Assembly: GCA_003971905.1 (NCBI GenBank)
Contig: RSEE01000065.1
Location: 186,001-250,000 of the forward strand
From: Moniliella sp. 'wahieum'
Taxonomy: Eukaryota
DNA length: 64,000 nucleotides
Direction: 5' to 3'
Of the stretch, positions 4,073 through 63,793 are shown one piece after another (the first letter of the stretch is position 1; every line of letters begins with the position of its first letter). Under the pieces are notes generated by a model that was given only the letters and a program-made list of their open reading frames with translations, ran no database searches and was not told the DNA's origin. The translations under genes were made by a program, and so were the position numbers.

Positions 4073-4715
4073 GGCGCTGCGTCGGGGAGGCGATGGGCGG
4101 CGGCGGTGGATGCGCTTGCGGTGGCGGCGCAGGCCCGCTGCACGTGGCGCCCCGCCTCACGTAAGCGGCTGCTTACGTAAGCCGCTTCCCCCGCACGCAC
4201 GGCCTCTGCGCGGCGCTACCCGCTTGGGCGCAGGGCGGGGCACTGCTGTGGATGAGCTACCGGAGCGTGGCACTGTGTATATTGAGCATTCGGTACAACT
4301 GGGCACGTGCCTCCCGCGCCTCACGCCTGCCCCGTGTCATGCATGACACGTGGCCATCATGCATCAGATCTCACCGGGTGGGCTGAGTACCAGACAGGCC
4401 GCCTGGGTGTGTGAACATTTCATTCTCCCAGGGGCCCCGCTGTGCACCGATGCATGATGCATGACATGGATGATGGTCGATCATCGATCATCCGACGGAG
4501 GCTGGCCAGCGGAGAAAAGTTGATACGAAGACCACGCCATCCGGCACGGCGCCGTAGTCATAAGTCGCTTGTCACTACGTTGCCCAGTTGTAGTTACTAG
4601 TTGGCAGTTACCGCGGCTAATAAACGGCATCGCTCCTTTCGACTCCGAAGCATCTCAACCGCCTTTTTTTCGTCCCGCCCTATTCCTTCTTCCCGCCCAC
4701 CACATCTCTCACACC

Positions 4716-7027
4716 ATGGCCCAATTCTCCCACCCCCTCATCCGTGACGGCTGGTTCCACGAGATCAACTCCCAATGGCCCGGCGAGGCCATGGGCTTGC
4801 AGGTGGTCCGCATCCTCCACCACGAGAAGAGCAAGTTCCAGGACGTACTCGTCTTTGAGAGCACCACCTTTGGCAATGTTCTCGTTCTCGACGGCGTCAT
4901 TCAAGCCACCGAGCGCGACGAATTTTCGTACCAGGAGATGATCGCTCATCTCCCTCTTGCCAGCCACCCTAACCCCGAGCGTGTGCTGGTCATTGGCGGT
5001 GGCGATGGCGGTGTGCTGCGTGAGGTCGTCAAGCACGACTCGGTCAAGGAGGCCATCCTCTGTGACATTGATGAGGCCGTGCCGCGTGTCAGCAAGCTAT
5101 ACCTGCCCCACATGGCCCAGGGCCTTACTCACCCCAAGAGCACTGTGCACATTGGCGATGGCTTTGCTTTCCTCAAGTTGCCCGAGAACAAGGGCGCCTT
5201 TGATGTGATCATCACCGATTCCTCCGACCCTGTGGGCCCAGCCCAGGCGCTGTTTGAGAAGCCCTACTTCCAACTGCTCAAGGAGGCCCTCAAGCCTGGT
5301 GGACACATCTCTACCCAAGCCGAGTCGCTCTGGCTGCACCTTCCGCTCATCCGTGAGCTGCGGCAGAGCACCAAGGAAATCTTCTCGGTGGCCGACTATG
5401 CCTTTACCACCATTCCCACCTACCCCTCTGGGCAAATTGGCTTTGTCATCTGCTCCACCGAGCCGACGCGCAACGTGCGTGTGCCCGTGCGTGAGGTTCC
5501 GGGTTGCAAGTACTACAATGCCGATGTTCACAAGGCGGCCTTTGTCCTCCCCGAGTTTGCTCGCGCGGTCATTGAGGATGGGGCGGCGGCGCCGGGCCCT
5601 GTCGTGGCCTCGGGCGATGGTTCGGGCCCCGCGTCCCGTGACGCTAAGAATTCTTCTGTTGGGCTCGGGCTACGTTGCCCGTCCGTTCGCCGAGTACGTT
5701 CTGCGTTACCCCGAGTACAGCTTGACGGTCGCATCGTCGCGGTTGGCCAATGCCCAGCGCCTGGCTGAGGGTCTGGCGCGTACGACGGCCACTTCGGTTG
5801 ATGTGAACAACCATGCTGCTCTGGCCGAGCTGGTGGGGCAGCACGACATTGTCATCTCGCTCATCCCCTACATTTACCACGCCAAGGTGATCGAGGCGGC
5901 GATCGAGAAGAAGGTGGATGTGGTTACCACTTCCTACGTCAGTCCTGCCATCCGCGAACTGGCGCCCAAGATTAAGGCAGCGGGTATTACAGTGATGAAC
6001 GAGATTGGTCTTGACCCTGGTATTGACCACCTCTATGCCGTCAAGGCCATTGCCGACATTCACGCTCAGGGGAAGAAGGTCAAGGAGTTCTACTCGTACT
6101 GTGGTGGTCTGCCTGCCCCCGAGGCGGCAGACAACCCGCTGGGATACAAGTTTTCGTGGTCCTCGCGAGGTGTTCTGCTTGCCCTTCGCAACACGGCCAA
6201 GTTCTGGCAGAAGGGAAGTAAGGAGCCGGTCACCATTCCTGGCCCTGAGCTGATGAAGTCGGCCAAGCCTTACTACATTAGCCCCGCCTTTGCCTTTGTC
6301 GCGTACCCCAACCGTGACAGCACGCCGTACCGCGAATGGTACAACATCCCCGAGGCTGAAACGGTGGTCCGTGGCACGATGCGCTACCAGGGCTTCCCGG
6401 AGTTTGTCGAGGCACTGGTCAAGCTGGGTTTCCTCGACGACTTTGCCAAGCCTTACCTCACTCTTCCCAACACCAAGTCGTGGGCTGAAATTTTGGCGGC
6501 AGTGACGGGCTCGCAGAGCACGGAGCCGGCTTCGCTTGCGGCCGCGGTGCGCAAGGTTGTGGACTTTAAGACGGAGGAGGAGGCGGACATGGTGCTCCGT
6601 GGTTTGCGCTGGCTTGACCTGTTCAGCTCAGAGGTGCCCGCAACCGTCCGTGGCACGGCGGAGCAGGAGAAGGAGCAGCAGGGTAACCTTCTGGACTCGC
6701 TCTGCGCTACGCTCGAGCTTAAGTGCCAGTACGGTCCCGAGGAACGTGACATGGTCATGCTTCAGCACAAGTTCGTCACCGAGGACAAGGACGGTAACCA
6801 AGCGACCCTCACCTCGACGCTGCTCGACTTTGGTGTTCCCAACGGCTTCTCTTCGATGGCCAAGACGGTGGTGTGCCGTGTGCAATCGCCACCAAGCTCA
6901 TCCTTGAGGGCCACCCGGGCTGAAGAAACCTGGCGAGATTGTCGCCCCGTACTCGCTCGACGTTACGGAGCCCATTCGTGCTGAGCTTGAGAAGGAGGGC
7001 ATTGCTCTTGAGGAGCGCTGGGTCTAA
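4716..7027 (+). CDS. SPE3-LYS9: Chimeric spermidine synthase / saccharopine dehydrogenase (Spe-Sdh, SPE3-LYS9 fusion)
   Basis: N-terminal spermidine synthase: '[24 protein letters not shown]', '[10 protein letters not shown]', '[10 protein letters not shown]'. It is joined by a short linker to saccharopine reductase: '[12 protein letters not shown]', '[12 protein letters not shown]', '[25 protein letters not shown]'. Frameshifts at ~5650 and near the 3' end. No introns seen. Confidence 0.95.
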
Positions 7028-14641: not shown

Positions 14642-15337
14642 GGCGTAGGCGCAGCGGGGTGGGGGGGGGCAGGAAGAGGCACCAGGTGGTGGTGGGGGGG
14701 TCGGGGGCGACGAAGCGAGGACGCCGAGAGAAGATCCAGACGGGGCGGCTGCCAGCGGAGAAGCAGTGGTCGACCGTGAGATGATCGGTGGTCACAGATG
14801 GGGCTGGCCGGACGGCGGGCGCAGGGGCAGTGTCCGGGGCAACGGCACGGCCGCAGCGCGGCTGTGGGCGGACTTGTGCCGTGGGCGACGAATCGGATGC
14901 GAATTCCATCTGCAATGCACATCTGCAATCTGCCAAACCGGCCGTCTTCACTCGGCCGCCGCCAGCAGCCCAGATGGGACTGCGTCGCTGTGCACACGGC
15001 GACGGACAAACGATCTCTGTATCCACCCAGTCTCTCGCATCCCACATGTCACATCTGACTCTTGCCACCGCACCATTTTCTCCCCATCGCCCCTCCTTGC
15101 CGGACAAAGCCGTGGCCTACTTGCAAATGTTGGCAAGGGGAAAAGCGGGAAAACGTCCCAGCCGCCAGAATGCTACGACGCCGTGTCCCCGACCGCCTGT
15201 CGCATCACGTGATGAGCGCACGAGGCGCGGTTGAACGTTGAACGTTGAAGGTCTTTGTCCCCCCCCCCATGCGGTTTGAACGTGTCTCCTCCTTCTGGTC
15301 CTGAGGGCGTCACTGATGACAACCAAGATGGAGATGA

Positions 15338-15727: not shown

Positions 15728-16127
15728 TGTGGTCACACGGTCACGACTGGATCAAGTTCCCGAGTGATTATACTAAGATCGGATCTCCTTTGGCACATTA
15801 GCATTTTGACTGCCGTCAGTATTTAGTGCCATGGGCATGATTCCAAGCCAGTCCACAACCGCATGGCAGTGAGCTTGTGGACAGAGGGGTATAAAAAGCA
15901 TTCGTCAGTCTGCGTGGCAACAATACGAATACGTATCCTTGGGTTGTGTCATAGTTTGGCTGATCTCGCTCCCATTTCCAATTTCTTCGTCTCGAGCGTC
16001 TCGCTCCTTCCCTGTTCCTTCCACTTCGCACCATGTCCTCTGTTCTTGCTTCTTCCCCACGAACGATTGCTACACCCCTTGGCCTAGTCCGATCCTGGTC
16101 TCCCTCGCCTTAGCCCCGACTGTGACA
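15728..16127 (+). mobile_element. 5' LTR (~400 bp) of a truncated Ty3/gypsy-type retrotransposon
   Basis: TGT...ACA termini and TATAAAA at ~15890. The 3' half (15951-16127) matches the reverse complement of 61316-61344 plus ~61570-61725. Directly followed by a gag-like ORF. Confidence 0.8.
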
Positions 16128-16168
16128 TTATCGTTCGTCTAACCGTCAACAGGCGAGCCCGACCAGAG

Positions 16169-17095
16169 ATGTCCTCGATCCACGACAACCCCCATGACCC
16201 CAGTAACCCTAGCGCGCCGCACCCCATCGCGCGGCGCGGCCCGATCCGACCCCCGTCCGACCCCCCCTCTGACGCTCCGTTCGACGACGATGGCCCGGAG
16301 TGGTTCCACCCGGCTGGCCCTCTGACCCCCCATGCAGCTCCGTCTGTTGCGCGCCCGCCCCCGGGGTATACATTGCCTGCCTCCGACCTGTCCGGCCTGG
16401 ACCTCGAGGCCGCTCAGCGCCGGGTCGATGAGGCCCGCAGAATGCGCCAGCTTCTGTTGACGGAGGCCCGGGAACACCAGGCCTACCTTGCAGCCCAGGA
16501 GGACCAGCGCCGCGCTTTCGAGATGACAAGAGGCGAAGCGCCGTGAGCACCGCCTCCGTCAGCGGCGGGAGAGGCGGCGCTCGCCGCGGAAGAGGCCCGG
16601 TTGGCCCGCTCGGTACGGGAGGCTCAAAACTGGCGTGGTGTCCTCGGGCCCCGCCCCGCTCCCGCCCCTGGGCCTTATGGTGATGTGACCGCCATCCCGA
16701 ACAAGGTGTCGGAAGAGCCGAAGATGTTCGAGCCCGTTCGTTTCCGCCCGACGTCTGGGTGCGAATCCCAACTCTCGGGACCGGGTCCAGGCCCAGCACG
16801 TCGTCACCTCCTTCGAGATTTACGCGCGCGTCGCCCTCACGCATCTGGGCGCGGCGGCATGGATCGACCGCTTCATGGGCCTGCTGCAGGGGAGGCCCTC
16901 ACTTGGGTCGAGCAGTTCGGTTCGGAGGTGGCCCTTCCCCTGGAGGCGCGCACCACACCCGCCCTCCGGTCTTGGCCTGCGTTTCGCGCAGCTTTCCTGG
17001 AGCAGTGGGGCGAGCGCAACCCGGCGCTGAAGGCGTTTGAGGAGTTTGGTCGTCTTCGGATTCACAGACTGAGGAGGATATCGCGCAATGAATGA
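16169..17095 (+). pseudogene. Retrotransposon gag-like ORF, frameshifted and truncated; no pol
   Basis: 'GEALTWVEQF...SWPAFRAAFLEQWGERNPALKAFEEFGRLR' matches the Ty3/gypsy capsid pattern (A..W...W..F...F...). Located 41 nt after the LTR end. Confidence 0.7.
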
Positions 17096-17540
17096 TTTCA
17101 CAGTTTTACCCCACTGTACGTTTTCGTACACTGCGGTGGTGCTCTCCGCGCGTTTGGAACCAAGCAAGAAAATTATACCAAACACACGCTGCCACCGAAG
17201 CATCACACATGTCACACCGCTACAGGCCATGTCCCCCCGTCCACCACTGATGGTCTTCATTGGCGCAGTCACTAGCCAGTACTCAATCTGAGTGCTCAAC
17301 GCCTGTGCAAGAACGGGAATTGACAACTGATTGCCGGGGCTCCATGCGCTCCATTGACATTATTGTTGACAGGCATGACAAGAGTGACAGCATGCGATAG
17401 CCAAACGCATCTTGCCTTTTGCATCATGGGGCCGCGGGGAAGCGGCACACGGGCTATACCAAGGCACAGAGGCCACACAGGGCGCTCGTTGTCGCACGCG
17501 TGTTAGATGCGCCGTGCATCCAGTGGCGCAACAACCCCAG

Positions 17541-17710
17541 TCACATGTCACAGGCCTCAGTCCTCAAAAGCTTCAAGCTTCAAGCTTCAAGCTTCAGGCC
17601 AGCTTCAGCTTCAGGCCTCAGGCTGAGGCCTCAGGGCAAGAAGGTGAGAGGCTCAGCACGGCTCAGCAGGGCTCAGGGCGCATGCAGTAAGGCTCAGCAT
17701 GGCTCAGCTG
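17541..17710. repeat. Heptamer micro-arrays (TTCAAGC)n and a (C/G)CTCAG-rich tract
   Basis: TCA-AGCT x3 at 17573-17596, TCA-CATG-TCA at 17541, TCA-GGCC-TCA at 17611, then repeated GGCTCAG. Confidence 0.85.
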
Positions 17711-17734
17711 CGCTCGGGCACATGCAGGCGAGAG

Positions 17735-17975
17735 TGTAAAGTCTGTTGGCCTAGGGAGCCGGACGGGCAGAAGGATGAGGAGAAGGTGATGGATTGGAGC
17801 CAGAGTTGGGTCTGGGTACAGAGGCATCTATATAGGAGGCCGGACTAGGCACAGGGACAGTGAGTCACACAGGAGAGAGTGCAGGGCACAGGGACAGTGA
17901 CACGCAGGACGTCAGCATGGAAGCCGATGGAACCGAGGCGAACCTGGTCTACCGACTGGGAGCCAGAGGATCACA
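17735..17975 (-). mobile_element. Possible solo LTR
   Basis: TGTA...CACA ends, TATATA at ~17830 and an internal direct repeat GGCACAGGGACAGTGA (x2). No TSD found. Confidence 0.3.
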
Positions 17976-19758
17976 GTCAACAAAGTCGAATTAGCGCCCC
18001 CACAGACCTTTCCTGCGGCCCCCCGCAGCCGTATTAGGAAGTAGGATTTGTCCTGCTTTGTCCTGGTTTGTGCCCCCTATCCCCCCCCCATCACTGCATC
18101 AGGCGGACCGTTTGCGCCGGCCATTCAGGGGTTTCAACTTTTGACGAGAGAGTGCTAAAGATGTCGAGTGAAACGCCCAACTACCCCTTATACCGTCAGT
18201 CCACCAGTCCAGAGGGCTGTTTGGAAGAGACGCCATTTAATGCGGTCCTCCAGCTTCCAATCAGTAGAGAGCAGGTACGCCTCGGTTCTCCGCCGGCTTT
18301 CACGCTGCGGGCATCATGCCGGCGTGGTGCTGCCCCTGCTCCCCTAAGGCCTAACCCTTTCTCCTGTACTATGCATCACTGTGGTCCTGATGTACCCAGT
18401 CCGGCCTCCTCCAGGTGGATGCCTCTGCAAACGTTCCGATCTATATCACCTTCCCATCCTTCTGCCTATCTCCCTAGGCCACCAGAGCATCGGATCTGCT
18501 GATATGATGCATGCTGGTAATGAAGCCTGAGAGTGGAGGGGTCAGCCAGTCAGATTGAGGGCTCATCGATCATCGCAGCTTCGCGATCCCTTTTTCCACG
18601 ATTTACTCCCCCTTGTGCAGGACCAGGAAGAGCTCTGGCGTCCTGTGGGTACAACCAACGACGGAGAGATATGGCGATTTTGCCCCATAAAGCGACGAGC
18701 CGGCGCTGGGTTTGAACATGCACACAACAATGCGGCCACGCTCGGCCAACATGCTGGTGAGACTTAGCGCGCTCAGCGCTCAGCCTGGGCGCTCATGCCA
18801 GCCCGGCTCAACATGATCTGGACGGATGATCGAGATGCGTAGGAGTGTTGGTGTAGAAAGACGGAGAAGCGACCTGAGGCCAGAGGCCCGTTGAAGGAAC
18901 CCCAGCGTATAGCGTACCGCGCAACTGCGCACACAGATAATGTCCGCTCGCCGAGTTGGCCCATGCTTGTGAATCGGTCAGCATTAGTACCGTTAGGTCG
19001 AGAGGGAGAGCGGGTCTCATCTGTATTTTTTAACGGATGAGCTCGATGAGGGTCGGCCCAAGTGGGCCGGTGGTGCAATTAGCAAAGACGCCCTGAGATC
19101 CTGAGAGTAGCGTTTGTTTCGAAGAAAATGGTGCCAGTCGTCTCTGATGCATCAGTGGCTCATCTTTGCTTCTCTCCTGCCCCCCATTACGAGTTGAATG
19201 GTGCATGACATTCATGTTGACATTGTGAAGTGACATTGCATGACATGCAAACAATCATGCGGTGTGAAGGATGATTAATGATTGATGCGCCTGATCTAAT
19301 GTCCTTCTCTTATGTCCACGGCGTGAAGAAGGAACCGAGGCCGAATGCAATAAGACCAAGGAGGCGGGGAAGAACAGGTAAGCGCGGTGTGGTAGAAGGG
19401 TGCAACCCATAATGATGTCTGCGGCGGTGCTGTGGCATTAACAGCGCTGCTGGTGTTGGATGTTGGGGACTTTTGTGGTCTGAGCGTCTGGGGGTGGGCG
19501 TTTGTGGGCGTCATTAATCATCAATCATTGCCTGTGGTGCTGTGGCAGCTGGTGCACGTTGACGTTGATTAATGATTACACTTGCGATGCCACTCGAGTG
19601 AAACGGAGCCTGAAGCTTGGAGACTGGCATGGGCTTGGAAATTGGACGGGACATACTGGGGAAGAAGGCGAAGGGCTTGTCTAATGTACTGCGCAGATGC
19701 GAAGAAAGTTTGATTCGCGCCAGGAACACAGGAGGGGACGCGGGGGCGAGTGGGGCGA

Positions 19759-20235
19759 TGATGCATGATGCATGATGCATGATTGAAGGCAGGTGCCTAG
19801 TGCTCGTGCCCCTTGCATGCGGGGCAGCGCAGTAGCACAAGGCGGAGCCCCACACCACCGGCACGGGCGCTCTGATCCACTCCAAGCCAAAGCCTCAGCG
19901 CCTCAGATGATCGATGATCGATGATCGATGATCGATGAGTTAATCATTCACACTGTACGAATGTCACATGCATCACACACGATGAACCCTCGGCCTCAGC
20001 GGTGCGGCGGGAGTACAGCAGTCCCCACCCTGCGATGTCAGAATCCCACATCTCTTCAGATGGGTGCCAGCTCGTGACCGGTGGGTGGGTGGCATGCGTG
20101 ACATGGCCCGTGGTCGATGATACGGTGACACGAGTGACATTCGGCCGATGGGAGCATGGGAGCATGTGAACATGTGAACGTGTGACGCGTGATGCATGTG
20201 ACATTGATGCATGATGCATGATGCATGATGCATGA
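19759..20235. repeat. Heptamer micro-arrays (TGATGCA)n and (TGATCGA)n upstream of CreA/Mig1
   Basis: (TGATGCA)3 at 19759, (TGATCGA)4 at 19908-19938, TGA-CGCG-TGA at 20183, (TGATGCA)4 at 20205-20235. Confidence 0.9.
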
Positions 20236-20740
20236 TGTCGGTGCATGGCATCGATCACACATCTTCCATGCTGGAGTGGGCTTTGGTCGGGGCATTCGGA
20301 TGGTGCGGGGCGGGGGACGGGGGCAGTGTCTCTCCGCATTCGAGTCCTGTCGCCCCGTGCGTCAAGCATCATGCACCATGCACCATGTACCGTGCATGCA
20401 TGGCCCGCCTCTGGCCCCGTGCGCCGGCGGTGTGCGCAGGGGCAACACAGGGCGACACTGGCGGGGTGCGGGGGCGGCGCAGGGGCCGACGGCTGCCGGG
20501 GCTGCCGGTCATCCCGGATGAATACGATGCATCCACCGGGGGCCCAGCCAGGCCACGCCAGGCCACGCCAGGCCACGCCAGCTGGGGTTGCTGCCATGTC
20601 CACCGCCGTCTCCACCACCGTCTCCGCCTTCACCACCACTCCCGACAGCGCCGCGCGCTGTGCTGTGTAGGGTCAGTCGTCGTTGTTCCGCGCCCACGCC
20701 CCCGCCGCCGTCGCTGCCTCTGCTGCCTCTTCCTCTGGCC

Positions 20741-27210: not shown

Positions 27211-27859
27211 GGCGGCGGCGCGTGGATGGTGGGGGCGGGGCAGACGGCTGGATGCGGCGGGGGCAGCCGCTCTCAAGTACGATGGCCGCGGCGGGCTGCG
27301 TCCGGAGTGTGAGTTCCCAGCGCCCCGCCGCCCACACTCGCCGGCTGCTGCGCCGGCCACGGGGGCAGTGCGCAGCACAAGCCCCAATTGCGGGAACAAA
27401 GCCAACCGCGCGTCCCTCACCGATGGGTGCTGCTGCAACGCATGACGGCGGATGCATGATGCAGGCAGGGGGGATGCGTGAGCGCCCAAAGCGACGGCGA
27501 GGGCCGACTGGCCCCGTGGCCTGCTTTTTTTTTGAAACGATCGGCGCCCCCACTGCCCCCGGAAGCACACGGGAGCGCCGACGAAACGACGGCCTGCTTG
27601 GAGGGTGGCCACTGGAGAATGACCTCATCGATATTGATATTGATCAGCCACTAGTCGCGTTCGACGTTAGCCAACGCTTGCCGGTTACCCACCCTTCCCC
27701 CCCGCCCGCGCCGCCATGCCCTCAATCATCGCAGGCGTCGATCTGCAGGCGAGCTCCCCTGCTCGCGTCGCCCCACCGTCCCACTGCCCCACTGTCCTGA
27801 GCCATATACTCCAGCCCACGACATAGCCGTGGCAGCCTTGTCCCGCCTATTACCAACTA

Positions 27860-29982: not shown

Positions 29983-30795
29983 GAGCGTGGGTAGGAAGGG
30001 GAGAAGAGGGTGGCGGTGGTGGTGGTGGTGGTGGTAGTGGTAGCGGGGGTTGGCTTGGGGGGGAGGCAGCCAGCTTCCAACGCCCATGCGCGTCTGGGAC
30101 GGGTGGCGCTGATAGGACAGCGGATGGACCGTGTGGTGCTTCTGCGCCGGCACCGCGCTGCCGCCCGTGCACACTGGCGCTGTGCCCGCCTCTGCATGCA
30201 TGTGGGACACAGGGGCTAGGATGGCCGGCCGTGGCTGCCCGCGTGCGCGGCGGCGCTGCGAAGGCGAAGACGATCGCGCAAATCGTATAATTTTGGGGGG
30301 GGTTGCAGAAGCAAGCCAAACAGCGGAGAGAAGTTTTCCCAAGCCAGTTTGTGCCCCTTCGATGCTAGCCAGGCTGCGTGCGTTCTGAGATCTATGATTA
30401 ACAGGCCATCTGTGCTCGTACACCCCCTTCGCACATCTTGCGCAGGCGCTCGCCCACCGCCAAATTCGAAGGTAGAGAGAGTGGAGGAACAGATACCAGA
30501 CATACAAGTTGCTGTGTGGTGTCTATCAATACAGGTCTACCATGGTCAGGCCTCGGGGCACATCTGAAGGCAGGCACAATCTGGGGTGGATTTCAGGCAT
30601 CAAGGCACCGGCTTCAGCTTCAGGGCCGCTTGTCCCTACAGCTTGAGCAGCAACTTGAACGCAGAGACTTCAAAGAGCCATCCGGGCAAAAAGAGGAGAG
30701 CAAAAGAAAGTAGGCAGCAAACGAGAGTGTGTGGGAACATAGAAGGGAGAGAAAAGGGGTTGAGCGCTGATGTTGATGGGCCGGATCCGAGTGGT

Positions 30796-36700: not shown

Positions 36701-37837
36701 AGACACGAGCCAAGGTGGTCTCGTCCAATTTGGATTGCAGGAAGAAGGGCACGGCCAGAGCTCCTTGCAATTGACCCGTTTTGTTCGAGTCGAGGTTGTC
36801 AAAGAAACGATTGGCATTGGCCTGCTCGGCGGGGTGATGTCCCAGACCGGAGCACCATATGACCCGGTAGGCTGCGCGGAGATGGATGCAAACCCGGTCG
36901 CCGAACGGGATGGGAGTGTGCCTGTGCGCTGGGGGGCAATGGGCGCAGGAGAGAAGGCAGTAATGGACTGGCGCGAGGGGCGCGCTGAACCTGTGCAGGA
37001 GTGTATCCGCGCGAGGGGGCGCGCTGGACCTGCGCAGGAGTGTATCCGCGCGAAGGAGGCTGGGCGGGAGTGTAAGATCGGGTGGGCAAGGATTGGCCAC
37101 CGGAGGCTTGCTCGTACAGTCCCGGCGGCAGCGAGGCGGGGATACTGGGGATGGAACCGCTCATGAATCCCTGGATGTAGTACATGGCGATGGTGAAATC
37201 AGTCAAATCCAGTGCACCGCGCGAGTGGGTGTCGGCCAACGCCCAGATGTGTCCGAGCTTGTCGAACGGGAGCTTGGACTTGAGGAAGACTTCCTTGGCC
37301 TTTGCGCCGTCCAGCAGTCCGCCTACGGGGCCGGCGTTTGCAAAGATACGCGCGTAGCGTGACTTGGACGCGGGGCTCAGGTCAATAGCAGCGGCCGGAG
37401 TGGAAGCGCGGCGCGCGGGACGGACATGACGGAGGCCGAACGGGAGGGGGGCTGCTGGACCTGTGGATACACAACGCCGTCGAACACGGGCGGGGCGATG
37501 GGGCTCGAGGCGAGGGCAGGGACGATGGCGTGGCCCTGCTGGGCATGGGAGATGAGGCGGAGGGCAGTGCCAAAGCTGCTGGGGGTGAGGAAGCCGACAT
37601 TGTCGCTGTCGGCAATGGCCCAGATCTGGCCGAGGACCGCGGGGGGAGGCGGGAGGCAGCAAAGAACTTGACGGCCTGGTCGCCCACCAGCACGCCAGAC
37701 TGGCCTGGATCAGCGAGCGACCAGAGATGGGCGAACGCGGTGCGCTCGGCCGGGGTGAGTGCCACTGTGGCGCGGGCGGGAGAGGGGCCGTCAGGATCGG
37801 ATGGGGGGGTCGAGGAGGGGGGGCACGTACACGACAT
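30796..37837 (-). CDS. EDE1: Ede1/Eps15-like endocytic adaptor (3 EH domains, coiled coil, long low-complexity region, C-terminal UBA)
   Basis: EH1 'LTPAERTAFAHLWSLADP', EH2 'AKEVFLKSKLPFDKLGHIWALAD', EH3 'VPFFLQSKLDETTLARVW'. Coiled coil at ~35500-35950, FDDAFG-type motifs, UBA 'MGFGRSQVVSALE...ERALEILL'. Introns 37765-37830 and 36635-36699. Confidence 0.85.
33078..33190. repeat. 39-nt coding tandem repeat (x3) in EDE1
   Basis: GACACCGGAGCGACGGG... recurs every 39 nt and encodes 'PAPVAPVSTEVEG'-like units on the minus strand. Confidence 0.85.
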
Positions 37838-40350: not shown

Positions 40351-40531
40351 TTGATGGAATGCAATGTGCTTGATGTAGCGGGCAAGTGTCTGTTTTGGGG
40401 GTGGCCACAAAGCCAGTCGAAGTACAAGATGAGGCTTTCCGCCTGATGCGAGCAACCTTCCCCACGCAGTACAGGGAGGGAGAGGCATGAGGGGGGGGGG
40501 GGGGGAGAGTGGGGGGTGGAGGAGACGGGTA

Positions 40532-51621: not shown

Positions 51622-53886
51622 CCGTGACTTCGACCTGGTCAAGACTGGGCTGTGGTGGATTAATTCAATATTCTAATTCCTCGCGCGAGCTACTGCCTGC
51701 TACTGCCTTGTACCGGCCATTACAGACTTAATCGTTGGACAGAATGCGCCTGTTCACCCAACCGACTTGGGTGTGGGCTTGGAAGGCAGGCTGGGGCTCC
51801 GCTCGCATCGGCAATCGTTCCCGGGAGAGCATCTGCTTTCGCTCTTGAAGCTTGATGTTGCTTCCTCTTCGGTTGTTTTCGCTGCGCGGGTTGGTGGGAC
51901 CTTAGGCCTCAAGCTAGCTCGACTCGATCCTGTCGCAGAACACAACCGCGCTTCCTCCTGCCGAGGGCGGAATGAAACCTGGCGGGAAGCAGGTTTCCGC
52001 CACGGCGCTTTTCGCTACCCCTGCTCGCCCTTCTCCCCACCTCTCAGGGCAGCGGCGCACAGCTGCGCTGTTTCGGCCCACGGCTCATATCATCAACAAG
52101 CGCCAAGCTTCAAGCTAGCTCCCCATTCCCAACAGCCACATGTGCTGCGTACCTCTACCTCGCCCCCTCGCCCGACCATAGCTTATAAGTCTTTGGCATG
52201 CTCACCAGAATCCCGTCCAACAGAAAGACGGAGAGATGCCGCCTCAGCGTATATATCCACAGGCGACAGACAGGTGTGTGTCCCGGCAGCAAAGGTCAAG
52301 GAAGCCCACCTGTTCCTCGTTCCTCTGTAGTAGCTGCCGCAAGTCGTCCACTAGGGGCTTTCCTTGTGTTGCGGTTTGTACAGTATGTATATTTGCTGCC
52401 GCAACTGTGCTTGCTTGTCTGGCAACAAAGCAGTTCAATTTGGGACTATAGCCCGCTCCCTCTTCCATTTGGGCACCTTATAGAAACGGATGGTGTTCCA
52501 TTGAGTTGGGTCATGGGCCATGTTATGTACCCTCGTACAGCAGACACGAGTCATTCGCGGTCATGGCGCTACCCAATTCGTTGTGTGCCTCTCTAGTTGA
52601 GTCGTAGGAGGCAGGTCTTGGCAGAGATGGTGCTTGAGAGGTGGGACTGTTGCGAGCGCCCCACCCTATTGGGCAAACTTCTGCTGATGGTGCAGGTATC
52701 CATGTGGGATAGTAGGTGCTACCATTGAAAGTGCCTCTCATAGACCCACACTGCAGTGAAACCTGTTTGCTCACAAACGCTTCGCCGAGAGAGACTAAGT
52801 TCCTGCTGCTTTTATTCTAACCGTCTGATCGCCTCGTTTCTCCATCTCCAAATCATCCCGTACGCACCTGTTGGGTTGAGGACCAGATACGAATGGGCGG
52901 AGTCGGACGCAAGGCTATGGGCTGTGCGTGGTTAAAGAGAAGGCGGGGAGGAGAAGGGACGAGGAATGGGCGCGGGGCAATGAGTAGTACGGGTAGTCTG
53001 GTCAACTCCAAACAGAGAGCCACTCTTTGGGGAGATCTCCCTTCGAAATACACCCCAGTCCCCTGGTGAGATGAGATGACTGATCAAAAAGTGCTACTTG
53101 TGTGTGTGCGTGTGTGAGAGTCCACTCCCGATCCCATCGAAACACAGCCGGCCAACATCAACTCAGATACACACCCCCGCATTTTCCTTTCTTTCCCAGG
53201 CTTCCGCCTGGACACACCACAGCGAGATGGTGGCATCCGTAACCCGCATGGTTGCCAACGGAGCCGTCAATGAGGCCTGAAGAGGGGCAGCTCGACGATA
53301 AAGTGCGAATGATGCCTTCACCATCAGGCGTGGTCACCGGTCACGCGGGCACGCGGTCACGCGTCCGGTACAAGCCTAGTGCCACGTGTCGGTGCAAAAC
53401 CGGTGTATCCGAACCCCCCGCCGGCGAGGGACCTGTTTTCAAACCCGCAGCCGAGTCGGAACATTCATTTGGAACGCACACACTTGCTATAGCCCCTCGG
53501 TCATTACCGGCCATAGTCCGTGCGCTGGTACGGATCGACCCGTAAGCGCAACCATGCTCACGCGCTCACGTTCGATTCAGGCCGTTCTTCAAGCTTCATG
53601 AAGCGTCAGCGTCAGGTCTCAAGGCACAGCTCAGGCTGCTCAGTCTGAGCTTGAGGGCTCCTGCCCCATCGCGGGCTCAGGGCCTCAACGGTTCAACGCT
53701 GGCTACGCTGAGGCGCTGAGGCCCGTGCTTGCGGGGTCACCCAGTCGCCGGTCACGTCATGCCTTTTGCTGGTGCAATCGCCGACGCTGACAGATGTGCT
53801 GGGTATTTAAAATTCTGCCCTCAGCCCCACCACTCATCCGCAGCTTCATCGTTCCTCTTTTCTCTCTTCCACCTCCAACGTTTCAA

Positions 53887-54733: not shown

Positions 54734-57420
54734 ACTGGGCCGGTTTGACTGTACGACGCACCTGCCCTGCATTCTGCGATGCGCGAACTGCAGAAAGAAT
54801 CTTGTCTTTGTCAACCCAACTCAACCCAACCAAAACAAAACAAAACATGGCATGAGATTGGACTTTGGTCTCTTCTTCTTTCTGGCTTGGAGCCCAAGGT
54901 GGCGCTACGGGCCCCATGGAGGATGGACGAGAGATGCTGGTGCATGGGGACGGGTCTTCTTTTAGTTTCTCTGTAACTGCCAGTGTGTCCATCTTGATCA
55001 CCGAGAGGCAATGGAGTCGGTCACGAGAAAGAACACCTGATGCGTGTTCTGAGCCCGTGTTCTCGAAGCGGGGGGCTTTGAGACGTTGATGGCTTGAAGG
55101 CCTAAATGAACGATGGTAGCTACCATGGTCAGATTGTTGTAGGGCTCTGCTAATGCGGATGAGATGTCCCTTCTGTCCCAACGGGCGGGGGGGGGGTGAA
55201 GGTACGAGATGCGCAGAGGGCCATCCTGGTCTCGTTTGCTCATCTGTGGCTGCCAAGCAGATGAAGGCACAGCCAGAAGGTTGGGGGGGTAATAGATACA
55301 CTGCAAAGCGAACGCAGCAATTGCCGGGGGCAGTCGGAGCTGAGGGCCGCCGCCAATTCCAACTTAGTAGCCGAAATCCGACAGTTGGGCGGAGTCCGAA
55401 GGACAAAAATTCCCTCTCTTATGTTGCTGATGCAGGGCCACATATACACCGCTTTTGGCTTTTGGAAGACAACCTGTGTGCACTGATACTATGGATGCTG
55501 GATGCAATCCCATATCCCGTCTCTCAGCATACCGGCGCTCGCTTGCGGCCTTTCATGCGCGTCCGGAAAACGGGTGGAAGAGGGAGAAGTGGAACGGACG
55601 CGGAAGAGGGTGGGATTGTGACATCATTGATGTGCCGCCGCAGCTGCCGTTTCGGAATGAATCTTGAGTGTCCTAATGCCTAAGGCCTCTCATAAAGGCA
55701 GCCTGCAGTGAGGCATGGATTGCATCTTGGGCCGAGGGCCTGGCCCCTCGTCTGAGTCACACGCGTACAGGTTAATGGTGGCTCGCTCCAAGAAGCATAT
55801 GTTGATCGTGCGCGCCGGCTTGTTTGCAGTCAACCGGGCGCTGCGTGGTTGCGCACGTCCAAAAAGGTGTCTCTCTCTTGTCGGGGGGGGCGAGGGAGGC
55901 GGATCAGCGGTGACCCTGATCCATCAGTGTCAGCACAGGTCAGCACGCACAGCCTCAGGATTATGCTGTCTGTCTGTCGTTCCTGTGCGTGAGGAAGCTG
56001 GGTGGTGTCGAGAAAACATGGCAGACCTCAGGCGATGTGGTGAGTGAAGCTCCCTATATGACGCTGCTGCGAGTTGGTTTGGATTCCCAGGCGGCTGAGT
56101 ACTGATGAAGCAGAGAAAGGAGACAGAGGGGTACACATGCAGCACAGGGGGGAGGCTGCGCTGAGCGAGGCGCAATGGGCAGTGGAGGGGCAAGGGCGCG
56201 TTGGCCTTCTCCTTTTGCATGCAAGGGCAATGCAGGGGGAGGGCGGTATGCGGAGGGTGAGGTAAGCGTGTGAGAGTGTGCGGGAGGACAAGGCAGAGCG
56301 AGGCGAACGGAGGCTGCAGGAGCTGCGGCGCGCTGTCGCCTGTCGCGTGATGCAGTGAGGCCGAGCTTGGAGCCGAGGGTGGAGGCCTAAGGCTCAGGCT
56401 GAGCACTCGTGTGGGGGGCGTGGCAGGTGGCATGCATGCCAAGCGGACCCCCGCGCGTGGCCAGACTGGGTGGCGCAGCGCCGGAGGAGGCGTGGCATGT
56501 GCTCCAACGGCATTTGGTATTTGCGACGCATCTGCCGCGATGACGTCAAGGGCGCCATGACGTGCATGACGTAGCCCGGCACCCAGGCCAGGCCAAGCCG
56601 GGTGGCTTTTGGGGTCCAACGTCCAACGTCCAACGTCCATCGACCATCTGGCTCCATGCGGGTGGGGTGACCGGTGAGTGCGCAGCCCGGTGAGCCACCG
56701 CTCAGCGCTATTGATATTGACGCGTGACGCGTGACGATTGTGCGTAGTGGCGCGCGGGGAAGGCAGGGCGGGGCGGCAGTGTGCCCCTGGCGGAGGCACC
56801 GGATGGCATGCATGCATGCGCTGGGCCCGGCACTGGCTCCGCAGCACGTGGGGGGCGCGGGCTGATGCATGATGGGTGAGGGACTCCGAGTAATTGATTG
56901 GGGAGCGTGGGGTGAGGGTGATGCGGACGGGGCCAGTGGGAGGGCGGGGGCTGCTGGGGATGCATGTGGGGGATGCGCGGGATGATCGGCTGGGTGGTGC
57001 GGTGTCTTGCAGGCTGTGGACAGCAGCGCAGGCGTGCTGCGTCCCTCTCCACGCGGGCGGCGACAGCCGGACACGCAGCGCTGCGGAGCGCCGGGGATAG
57101 CGCAGACCAGGATCACAGCAGGCGATGGGACATGCCGGCAGCTAGGCAGTGTGCCGCCGGTCGCTCGCTTGCGTCACGCACTGCACCACAAGGCGCTGGC
57201 AAGCACACGCACAACACGCCCCCCTCAGGCCTCACTCGACCCGTCCTGTGCCCGTAGCCACTCGCCATCCCCCCGTCGCTCTCAGCCCCCATCCCCCTTA
57301 TTACTCCGCCTGTCGCCCCCATCCTGCCCTCGCCACCTGCTCCCACGTGCTCGGCGCCCCCCGCCTCGGCTTTCGCTTCTGCTGCGCCACACCACACCAC
57401 CACCACCATCCGTCGCCACA

Positions 57421-58808: not shown

Positions 58809-60460
58809 CGGTCGAACGACACGTTTTTTCCTCGTCCCCTCTCGTTTTCGTCCACAACTTGTTTTCCTGCACCTCTTGTGCACCCCCACTGATCCTACTC
58901 GGAATCGCCTTGGATGAACTCATCTTTGACGGTTGAACCCCGATGGAAGCAGAGGCCCACCCCCGCTGGGCCCTTGCCGTACCCTACCCAGACCGGTTTG
59001 CCAACGCTCCATCCAGCTTCATGGTAGCACGTGCACCTGCCTTTCACATACCTCGCACCCGATACCACATGTCCCTCACATATAAACACAAACTCCCACT
59101 TTGCTTTCGCTCGTTGTCTCGATTCCCATCCCATTCTGTTCATCCTCCCTCTCTCTTTTCCTCTCCATTTCCCTCTGCCGCACCCTCCCCCTATCACTGC
59201 CTATTTTGCCAGGCCTCATCTCATCCTCCGTCCCTTCTTTCCTCCCTAGATCCACCGGACCCGCCCCGACCCGTCTTGCTCGCACCCCCTCTCCCCGTCA
59301 TCTGCTGGCCCAATAGTCCATGTGTGCCGTTGGACCCCCTATCAGTCTCTCTCACCACCATGGGCTGCGCGGGCTTGGAATATCGAGTCTCTTGACGAAC
59401 CAGACCCCGATCCAGACCCCGATCCAGATCCAGATCCATAACCATACTTCTACGTGTCTACGTCAGCCCCCCCTCCCCCCCTACATCCCTTTTCACTTTC
59501 CTATCGCTGCTGCTGCCCTTCCATCCTGTTCTGTTCCGATCCACCTCGCTTCTGTCGCGCGCCTCTCGCTCTCGCTCTTGTTCCCCCCCAAAAAGAATCG
59601 CCCCAGTCGCGCAACCTATTCTTGCACTAGCACGCTCTTCTCGTTTCGACGTTTGGGTTTCGCGATCCGACAGAGTGGCAGCGGCTGCGCATGCTAGCGT
59701 TGCACCCGCTTGGGGACCTGCGGCGCGGGGTGGCGGGTCGTAGGGGCAAATGCCCTACGGCAGGGTGTGGAGTGTGGGTTGTGCGTTATGCACTGTCACA
59801 TTCACGCTTCAAGCTTCAAGCTTCCCCGCTTCGATCAATATGGCGCGTGAAGCTAGTATCGTGAAAGGCTCAGGCTGAGCGCTCAAGTGCCCGAAACAGC
59901 CCGGTTTCCGTGCCTTGGCAGACCCCTAGGGATGTGTGGATAAATGGAATGCAGGAGGCGGACGTGGTCCGGTCTGTGGGCGCTTGGTGGGCGTTCCGAG
60001 TTGGGCGGTTGTAGCGCGCGGTCCCGTACGGTCCGGCTCAGCTTTCCTCCTCCCTCCCGATCTGTATGCGTTCTGGGCACCGGTGCCAAGGCACGCGTGA
60101 CGTTTGTTTCACGGTACGCCCGATGGGCAGGGCGGGGTCTCGGGCTAGGAATAAGCAAAAGGGGAACAGCGGCTCATGCGCATATCGGTATCCAGGATGT
60201 TCCTGTCGCTGGGCAAATAACAGTGGTGGGAAGGGGGGCTGCGGCGCTGAGGGCCAATTCAAAAAGAAGGCGACTGGCTTGGGAGCTGTGGGAATGTGGA
60301 ACCCGAGAACGGCGCAAAGGAGTAATTATAGTAACTAGTAACCGGTAACCGCGGTAGTATAGGCACATGGGCTCCCTCCCAACACACAATCTCAATCTCC
60401 GTCCTTCTCTTGGTCGCGCTGTAGCACTGGCAGGCGTAATGGCCACATCACACGGTGGAC

Positions 60461-60519
60461 GGGCGGTGGACGAACAAAGCCAATAAGCAGGGCGGTGGAC
60501 GAACAGAAGCCAATAAGCA
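60461..60519. repeat. 29-30 nt direct repeat (x2) containing CCAAT
   Basis: GGGCGGTGGACGAACA(G)AAGCCAATAAGCA repeated in tandem. Confidence 0.85.
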
Positions 60520-61063
60520 GGGCCGTGCACACGGGCGCAGTCCCTCTGCGGTGGTTCGTGCGGGCGCGTCCCCCCTTTTTTAATTGCGGTCCCTGTTTTT
60601 TCCCTCGGACGCCCCGTCGGTCCATTGGCTGCTCGACCTTCAAGCCTCGTCCCACATCAAAAAGGAGTCCACGGACCGCGCTCCGCGCTGTGCCTCGCAC
60701 TCCGCACGACGCGGCGTGCACGGGGGGGGGGGGGGTTCCTCCTGTCCCCCACGTGCCCTACTGCGCTGGCCAACGTGGCTAGCGGTCACCGTCCTCGCGC
60801 GGCGCAGCGTATACTAAGGGTACAAGGTACCACCCCAACAATCAGCAGGTTCGCACCCTCCGCCTCACCTAGCTCCTCTCACAACCGCGCCAGGGAGAGC
60901 GGAGCGAAGGAAAAAGAGAAGAAAGCACCGGAAGCTCATGATATACTCACTGCAACAACAGTGCCGGAAATGTGCATGATGCAAGAGTGCATGAGTGAAG
61001 AGAGATGCCTACTAGGAGAGAACAGCATTATGGTACCGTAGTGCATTAAATTAGACGCAGCAG

Positions 61064-61256: not shown

Positions 61257-61315
61257 AGCAGCACTACTCGCGATGTTATTCTGCAAACAAAGGAAACAGT
61301 GCTATTGTCGGAGTC

Positions 61316-61800
61316 TGTCACAGTCGGGGCTACGGCGAGGGAGAGTATGTTGGGACCCGCTGTCCCGTACGTAGGCCAAGGCGCTTTAACACCCTTTGCC
61401 CCTTATTATTTAACCTCTGAAGCCTCCATGTGTATACTCAGGTTGTTTGAACCCCTGTCTCCTCTAGGTGTGGCATAAGACTTAGACCTAACGGCCACCA
61501 CCGCGATTGCATTGCTCTACATTTCCAGAGGTTCATCACGCAACCCCTTGGGTCCCCCCGGTCTTACAGAGCCGAGTCGAGACTAAGTCGAGGGCTGAAT
61601 CAATCCCTCGTGGGCGAGAAGCATGAGCAGATGACGTAGTGCGAAGGGGAAGAACAGTAATGAAGGAGCGAGACGCCGCTCGGGACGAAGAAATTGGAAA
61701 TGGGAGCGAGATCAGCCAAACTATTATATGACCCCGCGCCAGGCACATCTTGCACACCGCATCGGGCCCTGGGTGGGGATATACACTGTGTGTGATCCAT
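61316..61800 (-). mobile_element. Solo LTR of the same family as 15728-16127, interrupted by a nested insertion
   Basis: 61316-61344 is the reverse complement of 16099-16127 with 1 mismatch. Similarity resumes at ~61570-61725. The 5' boundary is uncertain (~61800-61877). Confidence 0.75.
61348..61568. mobile_element. Nested solo LTR (221 bp) inside the preceding LTR
   Basis: TGTTGGGACC...GGTCTTACA termini. It accounts for the gap in the alignment to the 16 kb LTR. Flanks GAGTA/GAGCC form a degenerate TSD. Confidence 0.65.
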
Positions 61801-63793
61801 ATGCCCCTATGGCCGAAAAGTCTATTAGGACATAGAGGATCCTTAACTGCAGTAGAGGCTGATGATCATCGATCACAGATGGTCGCGCGTTTTAAAATTT
61901 ACCCCAAGCGCTTGGGTACACACCATCCATGTAACCCTAACCTCGCCTCCCCTGCATGGGGGCAGTAGCACATAACGCATGGCACCGACCACCTATAAAA
62001 CGCTATAGCAGACCAAATTGGTCCAAGGCCTAAGGCGAAACGCGGAACGGCAATGCATCGGCATCGCTCTTGGTGGACTAGTGCATTACATTGGTATGCA
62101 CCTTGGGCCTTCGCCCAGCCGGCCAGACGTACCAGATGAGAGTGCCACCACCACACCGTTTTTTGCTTATACTCTCCGAGAGTAGTGTCGTGTCATTATA
62201 TTTTGCTGTGTGCTTTTCGCAGATTGAGTGAGCAGGGAGGGGTACCACACCAAAAAAGAAAACATATTCACAGAAGCCACAAGCACGCTCATCGACATCC
62301 CTCGGTCAACTGACACACGTATGTGAACGATATGCATTACATTAGCATATGCAGTCGCGCCTCCCTCAGCCAAAACGGACACACATCTCGTGGGGTACGA
62401 TCCTTTGGAGAATGGAAGGACAACTCAAGGAAGGTTTGTGCTTGAGATGGTTAGTGGATCAGAGCAGAGCTACAGCAAAAACGATTGGCGTCTCGGTGTA
62501 TATGTAGCAGAGGAGGCTGCACGTGTGGCAAGGCTGCATATTCACCGTCGGCTTGGGCACAAGAACACAATGGGAGGAACGTTTCTGAAGCCTCTCCGGG
62601 ACTTAGACACGTGAAGAGGCAGCGAAGGACAAACACTGAGGGAGCTGGGACCGGGAAGAGACGATATTGGGCTGCTGGTAGAAGAGAAACCCAGACACAA
62701 CAACAAGACTGTTGGGACTGAGCTCGACGTGGCCAAAGGTGAACTCACCCGAGTTGACTGATGGAAAGCTGAGAACGGGAGGACGGATGACGACGAGATG
62801 GTAATCAAGTGGAGAAGATGTTGCCTGTATTGGACTAATTGGCTGGAAACCGACAGTAAGTGAACAGGAGAGGCAGAAGGGGACGGAGCTGGAACATGGG
62901 AAAAGACCCCTAACGGCTACCAACAGGGTTACAGAGGCGGATAGATATAAAAGGGCAATCACAGGCGCAAGGGGGATGTAGAAAGGAAAACATATAGAAA
63001 CGGTGGTTTGGTTGCCAAAGGCGTAACAGAGAAAGATAGAGGTAAGCGGGGACGCGGCGACAACTGTCGCAAGTAGGATACCACCGACTTATTGCTGGCC
63101 TCTCATTGCGGCCACCGCCTTCACCTTGAGCACGAGGTGACTATTGACGCATGGATGCGTGGCCACTCGGGCCACCGTACCAGCAACGGTCAAAAACTTG
63201 GTCGGACTTATTGAGAGCGTGATCCACTGGGTATATAGGTAGGGCAGGAAGGCGGCCTTAACTTGGATCCGACCATCTCAGATCCGACACGTCCTGTAAC
63301 ATGCTATTGCACCCTTCTCTCTTGTCACTTTTTGATGAAGCACACGTATAACCCCTCTTTTGTTGATGGTATGTGCCCCCGAAGGCCCTCCGCTGGGCTT
63401 ATTGTACAAGAAGCAATTCAGAGCCATTTCCCTTTTCGCTCTCGACCCCACCTCCGATGCCGTCTCTGGACTGCTTGCTGTGGTGCTGTGGCTTATCGCT
63501 GTGAAGACGTGGATGCGGGGCAGCAGCGGGGCGGCGGGGCGTCTTAGCTAAGCACGCCCGCCCCCCCGCCACCCAGGAGGCAAACATGCCAGCCAGCTGA
63601 ACGCGCGCCGGCGCGCTCCATTGTTCGGGCAGTCACATGTGATCTGCGTGTGACCCACCGTCACACGTCCTGTCGCCGGCACAGCGGCCTGCTGCTGCTG
63701 CGCTCCAGGCGGCCTTCGCTTCGGCGCCTCCCTCCACCTCCCCCCCCCTTCCCGCAGCAGCACCGCCGCCCCGCTGCCCCTCCCCTCGCCGCC

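Follow-up and report, generated by a model that had tools for sequence, protein, structure and literature searches.

Gene content of the window and distribution of the repeats

The window described here is a 64-kb stretch of contig RSEE01000065.1 (positions 186,001 to 250,000) from Moniliella sp. 'wahieum', and its non-coding DNA contains short tandem repeats with a period of seven nucleotides. The motif, as scored, consists of TGA or TCA (TSA, where S is G or C), a 4-nt core, and the identical TGA or TCA again. The core is a palindrome at 42 positions, and 12 of the 16 possible palindromes are in use. These heptamer repeats are a real phenomenon. All counts refer to this one window.

The window has a G+C content of 59.7% and carries eukaryote-type open reading frames (ORFs), which are fragmented. 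Pfam matches identify an exocyst Sec8-like protein, a chimeric spermidine synthase/saccharopine dehydrogenase (Spe3-Lys9; 4569-6984, plus strand, with Spermine_synth and Sacchrp_dh) and a C1-tetrahydrofolate synthase. Further ORFs match an EH-domain protein, a MOZ/SAS acetyltransferase, a DnaJ protein, a C2H2 zinc-finger protein and an NAD-binding protein. The Pfam scan covered 15 long ORFs and 150 of the 346 ORFs of at least 90 codons, the 150 being drawn from 7-11.6 kb, 13.8-24.9 kb and 51-64 kb. The nearest named relatives of the Spe3-Lys9 enzyme are from Violaceomyces palustris (72% identity) and Tilletiaria anomala (70%), and one further sequence is 91% identical. Because of this gene content and the relatives of the chimeric enzyme, the window is assigned, from its sequence, to the nuclear DNA of a Ustilaginomycotina basidiomycete. 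The fusion of spermidine synthase with saccharopine dehydrogenase was met repeatedly among basidiomycete matches. The 64-kb window contains no tRNA and no match to an Rfam family at the gathering score, and thus nothing that qualifies as a structured RNA gene by that measure. Its dispersed repeats comprise three short families only. The codon-usage gene map is crude, conservative and approximate; coding calls make up 30-39% of the window, and 38.7% in the map used to locate the arrays.

The TGA forms lie on the plus strand and the TCA forms on the minus strand. Four chains are packed into 140 bp of the promoter from which the Sec8-like gene (minus strand) and the Spe3-Lys9 gene (plus strand) diverge. 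CA-TCA-TGCA-TCA (4355-4366) is a 12-nt unit with the core TGCA, and TCA-GATC-TCA (4364-4373) has a TCA in common with it. GA-TGCA-TGA-TGCA-TGA (4449-4464) is readable as a 19-nt array whose 5' end carries a single T>C change, and TCGA-TCA-TCGA-TCA-TC (4477-4492) is located about 225 bp upstream of the Spe3-Lys9 ATG. The array GT-(TGA-ACGT)x2-TGA-A (15230-15249) stands upstream of the C1-tetrahydrofolate synthase gene (minus strand).

The densest cluster, of thirteen chains in 2.7 kb (17541-20237), lies upstream of the C2H2 zinc-finger gene. TCA-CATG-TCA-CA (17540-17552) opens a composite block (17541-17635) in which the cores CATG, AGCT and GGCC are mixed. The block continues with an (AGCT-TCA)x4 array (17568-17596) and with TCA-GGCC-TCA-GGC (17611-17623), which is followed by an inverted form of the motif, TGAGGCCTCA, at 17624-17633. 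This last sequence is a perfect 10-bp palindrome that adjoins the direct GGCC units, and it is one of seven inverted forms in the window. Farther along are TCA-TCGA-TCA-TCG (18563-18575), GCGC-TCA-GCGC-TCA-GC (18769-18784), TGA-TTAA-TGA-TT (19271-19283), TCA-TTAA-TCA (19511-19521), which precedes a decayed unit TCAA-TCA, and TGA-TTAA-TGA-TTA (19566-19578). The longest arrays are (TGA-TGCA)x3-TGA (19758-19783, 26 nt), GA-(TGA-TCGA)x4-TGA (19906-19938, 33 nt) and (TGA-TGCA)x4-TGA-TG (20205-20237, 33 nt), the last being about 550 bp upstream of the first C2H2 zinc-finger coding evidence. Between them, TGA-CGCG-TGA (20182-20192) continues into TGA-TGCA-TG-TGA-CAT.

In the rest of the window, TGA-GCGC-TGA (30761-30770) and TGA-GGCC-TGA (53271-53280) are without flank extension, and CT-TGA-AGCT-TGA is at 51844-51855. 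Three chains lie upstream of the NAD-binding protein gene. GG-TCA-CCGG-TCA-C (53332-53344) passes into an 8-nt-period run GTCACGCG (53332-53363), and about 300 bp separate CT-TCA-AGCT-TCA (53587-53598) from the downstream ATG of this gene. The ORF starting at 57499 is preceded by five chains. TGA-GTAC-TGA is found at 56095-56105, GG-TGA-CCGG-TGA at 56666-56677, the 19-nt array (TGA-CGCG)x2-TGA-CG at 56718-56736, TGA-TGCA-TGA-TG at 56863-56874, and CC-TCA-GGCC-TCA at 57223-57234, about 270 bp before the ATG of this ORF (57499). GCT-TCA-AGCT-TCA-AGCT-TC (59806-59824) is a decaying three-unit array, and GA-TCA-TCGA-TCA is at 61864-61875. Near the start of the window, TCA-TGCA-TCA (353-362) lies in the open frame of the Sec8-like gene (L-L-M-H-E-V, minus strand) without flank extension. 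It is probably a chance match outside the phenomenon, one of the 1-3 expected by chance.

A preliminary description of the window had listed 23 of these loci. All 23 coordinates carry TGA or TCA, a 4-nt palindrome and the same TGA or TCA, with the cores and copy numbers given there. The list was correct but incomplete, as it omitted the loci at 353, 4364 (GATC), 30761, 51846, 53271, 56096 (GTAC) and 57225.

Enrichment of palindromic cores

The exhaustive scan found 37 TGA-N4-TGA positions, 25 with a palindromic and 12 with a non-palindromic core, and 30 TCA-N4-TCA positions, of which 17 are palindromic and 13 are not. About 6% of N4 cores are expected to be palindromic. In Markov simulations (100 sequences for each of orders 1, 3 and 5), palindromic positions had means of 1.7, 1.5 and 2.9, respectively, with a maximum of 10, as against the 42 observed. 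These means agree with an earlier chance estimate of about two positions. Non-palindromic positions had means of 27, 22 and 20, and the 25 observed are at chance level. The excess is therefore limited to palindromic cores.

The positions join into 50 chains, 30 of which are palindromic chains of one core type; merging neighbours within 14 nt leaves 29 loci. Most palindromic chains are short, with one core in 24 chains and two, three and four cores in two chains each. The arrays are exact head-to-tail copies at period 7, with runs of 12-33 nt and 100% matches according to Tandem Repeats Finder and our own run scan. Among the longest exact period-7 runs (at least 16 nt), 10 of 13 follow the grammar, and the three that do not include two in which a palindrome follows a CCA pivot. 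Among chains with a single core, 18 are palindromic and 21 are not (18 of 39, where about 6% is expected). The bias is thus already present in loci with one core, so that the birth step is biased and not the expansion step alone.

Short tandem repeats can be miscounted on some platforms. Nothing was found in favour of a sequencing or assembly artefact. The thirty chains use 12 cores, are embedded in unique sequence and avoid coding sequence, and we know of no platform that produces single 12-mers, which most loci are. An artefact is therefore scarcely conceivable as their source.

The sequence rule

The elementary unit is 12 nt long and has the form [TSAde][e'd'][TSAde], that is, a 5-nt direct repeat with a spacer that is the reverse complement of its last two bases. 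When TSAde-NN-TSAde 12-mers are counted on both strands, NN is e'd' in 49 of 54. Because the 2-nt spacer inverts the flank bases, de-e'd' is a 4-nt palindrome whatever d and e may be, and for this reason any palindrome can occur. Arrays lengthen in 7-nt steps (12, 19, 26 and 33 nt).

The unit is polar. In 19 of the 30 chains the period continues at least 2 nt past the outer TSA on one side only; in 3 it does so on both sides, and in 8 on neither. Such an extension has a chance probability of 1/16 per side. Run lengths modulo 7 are 5 in 12 chains, 6 in 7, 3 in 4, 4 in 3, 2 in 3, 1 in 1 and 0 in none. Such a distribution results from lengths of 12, 19, 26 and 33 nt to which a single base is sometimes added by chance. 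The duplicated flank may be on either side of the pivot, and the pivot G can be on either strand; in the polar reading of 19 oriented loci, S is G in 11 and C in 8. The preliminary description had stated that symmetry and a 7-nt period are conserved and not the core. The period and the arbitrary palindromic core stand. The T-S-A pivot, however, is fixed as well, and the unit is a polar 12-mer and not a symmetric heptamer.

The pivot and the spacing are both specific. In the window, palindromic cores make up 10 of 31 TSA-N2-TSA, 0 of 46 TSA-N6-TSA, 0 of 26 TSA-N8-TSA and 0 of 31 TSA-N10-TSA positions, which is no enrichment, and only a core length of 4 is enriched. A scan of [X Q][reverse complement X][X Q], with Q of 2-6 nt and X of 1-3 nt, gave a 2-nt flank with Q = TGA, TCA or TAA as the only enriched combinations; in the same scan, other pivots and other periods were not enriched, equivalent descriptions aside. 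A 6-nt palindrome followed by one base and the same palindrome occurs 15 times, always with A..T as outer bases and G or C as spacer (15 of 15), and other kinds number zero. Direct arrangements (25 TGA..TGA and 17 TCA..TCA, 42 in all) greatly exceed inverted ones (3 TGA..TCA and 4 TCA..TGA, 7 in all). In the flank logo of the 19 oriented loci, no base outside the unit is conserved. TG follows the last TGA in 8 of 30 chains, by a reading of the chain list, against a background of 9%, and TGCA cores explain part of this.

The TAA and CCA pivots follow the same grammar but are rare. On the plus strand, AG-TAA-CT-AG-TAA-CC-GG-TAA-CC (60329-60351) consists of two 12-mers of opposite polarity with the middle TAA in common, and CC-TAA-GGCC-TAA is found at 18343-18354. 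CCA serves as pivot, also on the plus strand, in (CCA-ACGT)x3-CCA-TCGA-CCA (56614-56648) and in the run CATGCA-CCA-TGCA-CCA-TG (20370-20387). Mixed cores on one pivot occur within four loci (17541-17635, 53334-53363, 60329-60351 and 56614-56648). Partial units are GA-TGCA-TGA-TGCA (27451-27463, plus strand), which is a palindrome-TGA-palindrome without an outer TGA, CA-AGCT-TCA-AGCT (52104-52116, minus strand) and TGCA-TGA-TGCA (60973-60983, plus strand).

One-mismatch forms of the 10-nt pattern number 74, where 30 order-3 simulations predict 35, and two-mismatch forms number 341, where 356 are expected. Two-mismatch forms are thus at expectation and there is no tail of decayed relics, which implies either quick and precise loss, as the 5-nt direct repeats would allow, or maintenance.

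Several other descriptions of the unit were considered and rejected. A plain 7-bp tandem duplication predicts 14-nt runs, and there are none. A 7-bp target duplication centred on S predicts the same runs together with 2-nt extensions on both sides, which just 3 of the 30 chains have. A 3-bp TSA duplication with a free 4-nt filler predicts no flank extension, and 22 of 30 chains extend at least 2 nt on at least one side. A palindromic filler of variable length is contradicted by the lack of enrichment at lengths 2, 6, 8 and 10. In a mariner-like scheme the palindrome is the target and TSA is the remnant of an end; the window has only three isolated palindrome-TSA-palindrome units, and its run lengths disagree with this scheme. 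The rule does not generalize to any palindromic pivot or flank length, since only the 3-nt pivots TGA, TCA and TAA with a 2-nt flank appear. Lone palindromic heptamers of the form NN-TSA-NN are not the main signal either, as their excess is mild (92 of 985, or 9.3%, in non-coding DNA against 6.1% overall).

Other short-period sequences lie beside the arrays. The 8-nt-period runs CATGTGAA (20155-20185) and GGTCACGC (53332-53363) adjoin 7-nt arrays and place TGA or TCA beside CATG or CGCG. Possibly the same process, with one base added, gave rise to them. At 17649-17727 there is a 10-nt-period array of GGCTCAGCAC and variants, which is alternatively a 41-nt repeat. It contains the palindromic heptamer GCTCAGC five times, which is the odd-palindrome form e'd'-TCA-de at a period other than 7.

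Predicted folding

The heptamer e'd'TSAde is itself a mini-hairpin with TSA as the triloop. As single-stranded DNA, the arrays are predicted to form a hairpin with a TSA triloop, stems of 5-6 bp and a 1x1 S.S mismatch every 7 nt. This agrees with the earlier suggestion that they are self-complementary except for G.G or C.C mismatches. Three arrays of 29-33 nt have predicted fold energies between -7.3 and -9.2 kcal/mol, and those of 19-20 nt have energies of -5.0 and -3.2 kcal/mol. The composite block 17541-17635 has a predicted energy of -23.2 kcal/mol, compared with -10.2 ± 2.0 for shuffled sequences. Most loci are single 12-mers, which are too short for a stable structure.

Folding of this kind raises the question of ordinary microsatellite dynamics, in which 7-nt proto-repeats arise by chance and self-complementary units expand through hairpin-stabilized slipped strands, with no special birth. 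The pure head-to-tail arrays, the falling copy numbers and the hairpin folding, as in CNG repeats, all fit. Such dynamics would not, however, make single-core loci about ten-fold enriched for palindromes (18 of 39 against about 6%). At 60% G+C, hairpin stability would favour G/C closing pairs, but the observed form is A..T around a G/C centre in 15 of 15 cases. Other self-complementary periods and pivots are not enriched, although any self-complementary unit should serve, and the run lengths are non-uniform modulo 7. An origin by plain slippage is accordingly improbable. The preliminary description had proposed a structure-driven expansion or repair process, and the data favour that direction. 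Hairpin propensity alone fails as its cause, because only the T-S-A pivot is used.

Genomic location and orientation

All 30 chains are outside the codon-usage coding calls, and every locus of the preliminary description is non-coding, as it had claimed; the sole exception among the chains, at 353, was not in its list. With that exception all loci are upstream or intergenic, although in a compact genome nearly all non-coding DNA is such. The long ORFs that overlap arrays score negative for codon usage, and their translations are rich in Arg, Pro and His, as is usual for spurious frames where G+C is high. Relative to four inferred start codons, loci lie about 225-800 bp upstream.

Overall, 15 chains are of the TGA and 15 of the TCA form. 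Orientation is locally coherent, with 11 runs in the 30 chains against about 16 expected (simple arithmetic on the chain list), and both orientations occur inside the one promoter at 4355-4492. Within 17541-20237 the orientation switches from TCA on the plus strand in the five chains of 17541-18773 to TGA in the five of 19566-20205. Transcription or replication might change direction at the switch.

The same upstream region is rich in a second motif. With arrays masked, TGACAT (ATGTCA) occurs 10 times in 17100-20300 and 9 times in the 34 kb of non-coding DNA elsewhere in the window, and GTGACA occurs 8 and 10 times, respectively. TGACAT looks like a putative repeated binding site in the upstream region of the C2H2 gene, with a homeodomain- or bZIP-like TGAC core.

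The loci could be selected cis-elements, either sites bound by a factor that recognizes direct TGA repeats with a 7-bp spacing, or DNA or RNA structures (hairpin or cruciform) in promoters or 5' leaders. The palindromic core would then be retained because structure matters. Consistent with selection, the loci are promoter-proximal, they form a strong cluster in the long and TGACAT-rich upstream region of a C2H2 transcription-factor gene, few copies are decayed, and orientation is coherent locally. Because of the period of 7, three or more TGA units also place a stop codon in all three frames of the strand. Twelve cores with only TSA constant do not amount to a single recognition sequence, however. 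The excess of direct over inverted arrangements (42 to 7) argues against a symmetric dimer, which would use inverted half-sites, and the same two observations leave the earlier idea of a shape-read site for a dimeric factor unsupported. A structural role is difficult to reconcile with loci that are mostly single 12-mers of no stable structure, and even the 19-20-nt arrays reach only -3.2 and -5.0 kcal/mol. The two orientations in the promoter at 4355-4492 speak against an RNA-level signal, selection on structure would admit other pivots and none is in use, and the polar 5 + 2 boundary reflects how the repeat was made and not how it is read. Selected cis-elements are therefore an unlikely explanation.

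Other features of the window

Two 39-nt tandem repeats, at 33071-33187 (3.0 copies) and 36971-37053 (2.2 copies), have 93% matches and fall within minus-strand coding calls. They are presumably in-frame repeats of 13 residues in the encoded proteins. At 16088-17092 (plus strand), two open frames in the same phase and without a Pfam match are separated by a lone stop codon (16544-16546), which may mark the true end of a gene or sit in a short intron. A homopolymer-like G-rich run of 26 nt (76% G) is located at 40491-40516.

Origin of the repeats

We tentatively favour a reading in which the loci are short quasi-palindromic heptanucleotide microsatellites that originate where open non-coding DNA receives a specific 7-bp insertion at T-S-A, and that later change by replication slippage, although we hold it with less than even confidence. 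The 5 + 2 product can be read directly in the sequence. A single insertion of 7 bp at T-S-A would yield [TSAde][e'd'][TSAde], and the hairpin or copy-back intermediate and the TSA-recognizing protein are what we infer behind it. A break or displaced end beside TSA would copy back 2 nt and then re-copy 5 nt before sealing. The 2-nt copy-back would resemble the P nucleotides left by off-centre opening of a hairpinned end. Recognition of TSA would be by a protein, such as a nuclease or a transposase-like or topoisomerase-like enzyme, because TSA is strict and the 5 + 2 bases are exact, a specificity that generic DNA structure does not have. Arrays would subsequently grow and shrink in whole 7-nt units by replication slippage. 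The promoter location would mirror accessible promoter chromatin, and the repeats would most likely be a neutral by-product with fast turnover by exact 7-nt loss. The falling copy-number distribution fits slippage, the mixed cores on one pivot fit repeated independent events there, and the scarcity of two-mismatch relics fits rapid exact loss.

Several points weigh against this insertion model. We know of no enzyme or pathway that gives exactly 5 + 2, and known break-repair and transposon scars are heterogeneous, unlike the uniform scar found here. It is always the flank end, and never the TSA end, that supplies the 2-nt inverted copy, a bias not foreseen by a simple symmetric break model. The near lack of two-mismatch relics might alternatively mean purifying selection, that is, function. 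Locally coherent orientation (11 runs against about 16) is not foreseen by a neutral, strand-blind process, and the evidence comes from one 64-kb window.

The scar could instead be the footprint of a cut-and-paste DNA transposon, whose excision leaves behind a duplicated target and palindromic P nucleotides. The element would either insert at T-N-A (PIF/Harbinger, IS5-type) or make a 5-bp target duplication with hairpinned flanks (Transib, RAG), and arrays and mixed-core blocks would come from re-insertion into the regenerated target. A direct duplication of fixed length (5 nt, with a one-sided 2-nt extension in 19 of 30 chains) that adjoins a 2-nt inverted copy is what a target duplication with P nucleotides would look like, and the spacer is the reverse complement of the flank in 49 of 54 12-mers, as P nucleotides would be. 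Mixed cores on one pivot fit repeated visits, and DNA transposons prefer promoter-proximal DNA. The T-N-A pivot corresponds to the 3-bp target of PIF/Harbinger elements, of which TAA/TTA is the main one in the part of the mJing study consulted (PMC6850418).

The footprints themselves are less accommodating. In the same part of that study, 97 excisions left 11 kinds of footprint, among them deletions of 6-45 bp and insertions of 1-15 bp (PMC6850418), whereas the scar in the window is uniform. The expected spectrum of footprints is missing, as there are no period-9 forms (P nucleotides from both ends) in the window, the eight period-5 repeats (duplication without P nucleotides) are unrelated to the loci, an inverted copy of the TSA end is absent except where it is identical with the observed form, and other core lengths are not enriched. 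A donor element is also lacking within the 64 kb, which contain no transposon-like dispersed repeat family of at least 30 nt and no convincing inverted-repeat element. Apart from the arrays, one TSA-flanked candidate with 11-nt terminal inverted repeats (one mismatch allowed) was found, where a rough estimate expects about one by chance. About 29 intact scars in about 39 kb of non-coding DNA would need very high activity, and the genome looks repeat-poor. We regard excision footprints as quite unlikely, on a par with plain slippage.

Relation to known systems

The closest known systems are CNG-type hairpin repeats, P-nucleotide junctions and the regular footprints of Tc1/mariner elements, and each matches one feature and fails others. 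CNG-type repeats (CAG/CTG, CGG/CCG) likewise consist of tandem units that form single-strand hairpins with one mismatch per unit, and their copy number presumably changes by slippage. The repeats described here differ in having a period of 7 and not 3, a sequence that is variable except for TSA, mostly 1.7 copies, and a pivot specificity beyond hairpin stability. P-nucleotide junctions are made by hairpin-forming DDE enzymes and are found in V(D)J coding joints and in the excision footprints of hAT, Mutator and Transib elements. They share a short inverted copy of the bases at a break end beside a direct target duplication. Their inverted copies, however, vary in length and come from either end, whereas those in the window are always 2 nt, from the flank end and beside a 5-nt duplication, and no element is present in the window.

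The canonical Tc1/mariner footprint, TA-C(A/T)G-TA, is also a regular scar in which a duplicated target accompanies a 3-nt odd palindrome whose centre is either of two bases. The analogy predicts runs of 11, 18 and 25 nt bounded by the palindrome, but the observed runs are 12, 19, 26 and 33 nt and start or finish with TSA. The sites of bZIP-type proteins, TGA(C/G)TCA and TGACGTCA, resemble the repeats in their TGA half-sites and in forming an odd palindrome with a G/C centre. Their halves are inverted (TGA/TCA), while those in the window are direct (42 against 7), with a symmetry centre of T-S-A and not A-S-T. PIF/Harbinger and IS5-group elements, with their 3-bp TNA target duplication, have the constant trinucleotide T-N-A in common with the repeats. 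Here its centre is mostly G/C and not A/T and the duplicated block is 5 nt, the footprints described in the part of the literature consulted are heterogeneous or precise (PMC6850418), and the window has no element with terminal inverted repeats.

A mitochondrial 'palindromic microsatellite' was also considered and set aside, as the part of that report consulted concerns an unrelated phenomenon (PMC7218506). No description of TGA-N4-TGA or of the array strings was found in the full-text literature, in line with the preliminary description, which knew of none; most subscription journals and supplements are outside that coverage, and this is not proof of absence.

Biological significance

It is possible, though doubtful, that this fungus, and perhaps its relatives, has a previously undescribed T-S-A-specific DNA-breaking or strand-switching activity that acts in open promoter DNA and leaves an exact 7-bp scar. 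Its agent might be a domesticated transposase or a topoisomerase-like enzyme. If the arrays are selected instead, they would be a cis-element defined by symmetry and not by sequence, which is just as unusual.

If the 5 + 2 signature is real, the molecular event, a break or strand switch by TSA with a 2-nt copy-back, can be searched for in any genome, and it would be a new route of microsatellite birth. Each event would make a new A-xyy'x'-T hexamer, which would account for varied short palindromes in fungal promoters. Palindromic hexamers are typical sites of dimeric regulators, and the process could therefore feed promoter evolution. If the activity exists, it would make a substantial share of the small insertions in non-coding DNA. 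It would give promoters a continual supply of hairpin-prone heptamer repeats and of palindromic hexamers (ACGCGT, ATGCAT, AAGCTT and others). The fungus would thus have a built-in generator of regulatory variation, which would leave a new mutational signature.

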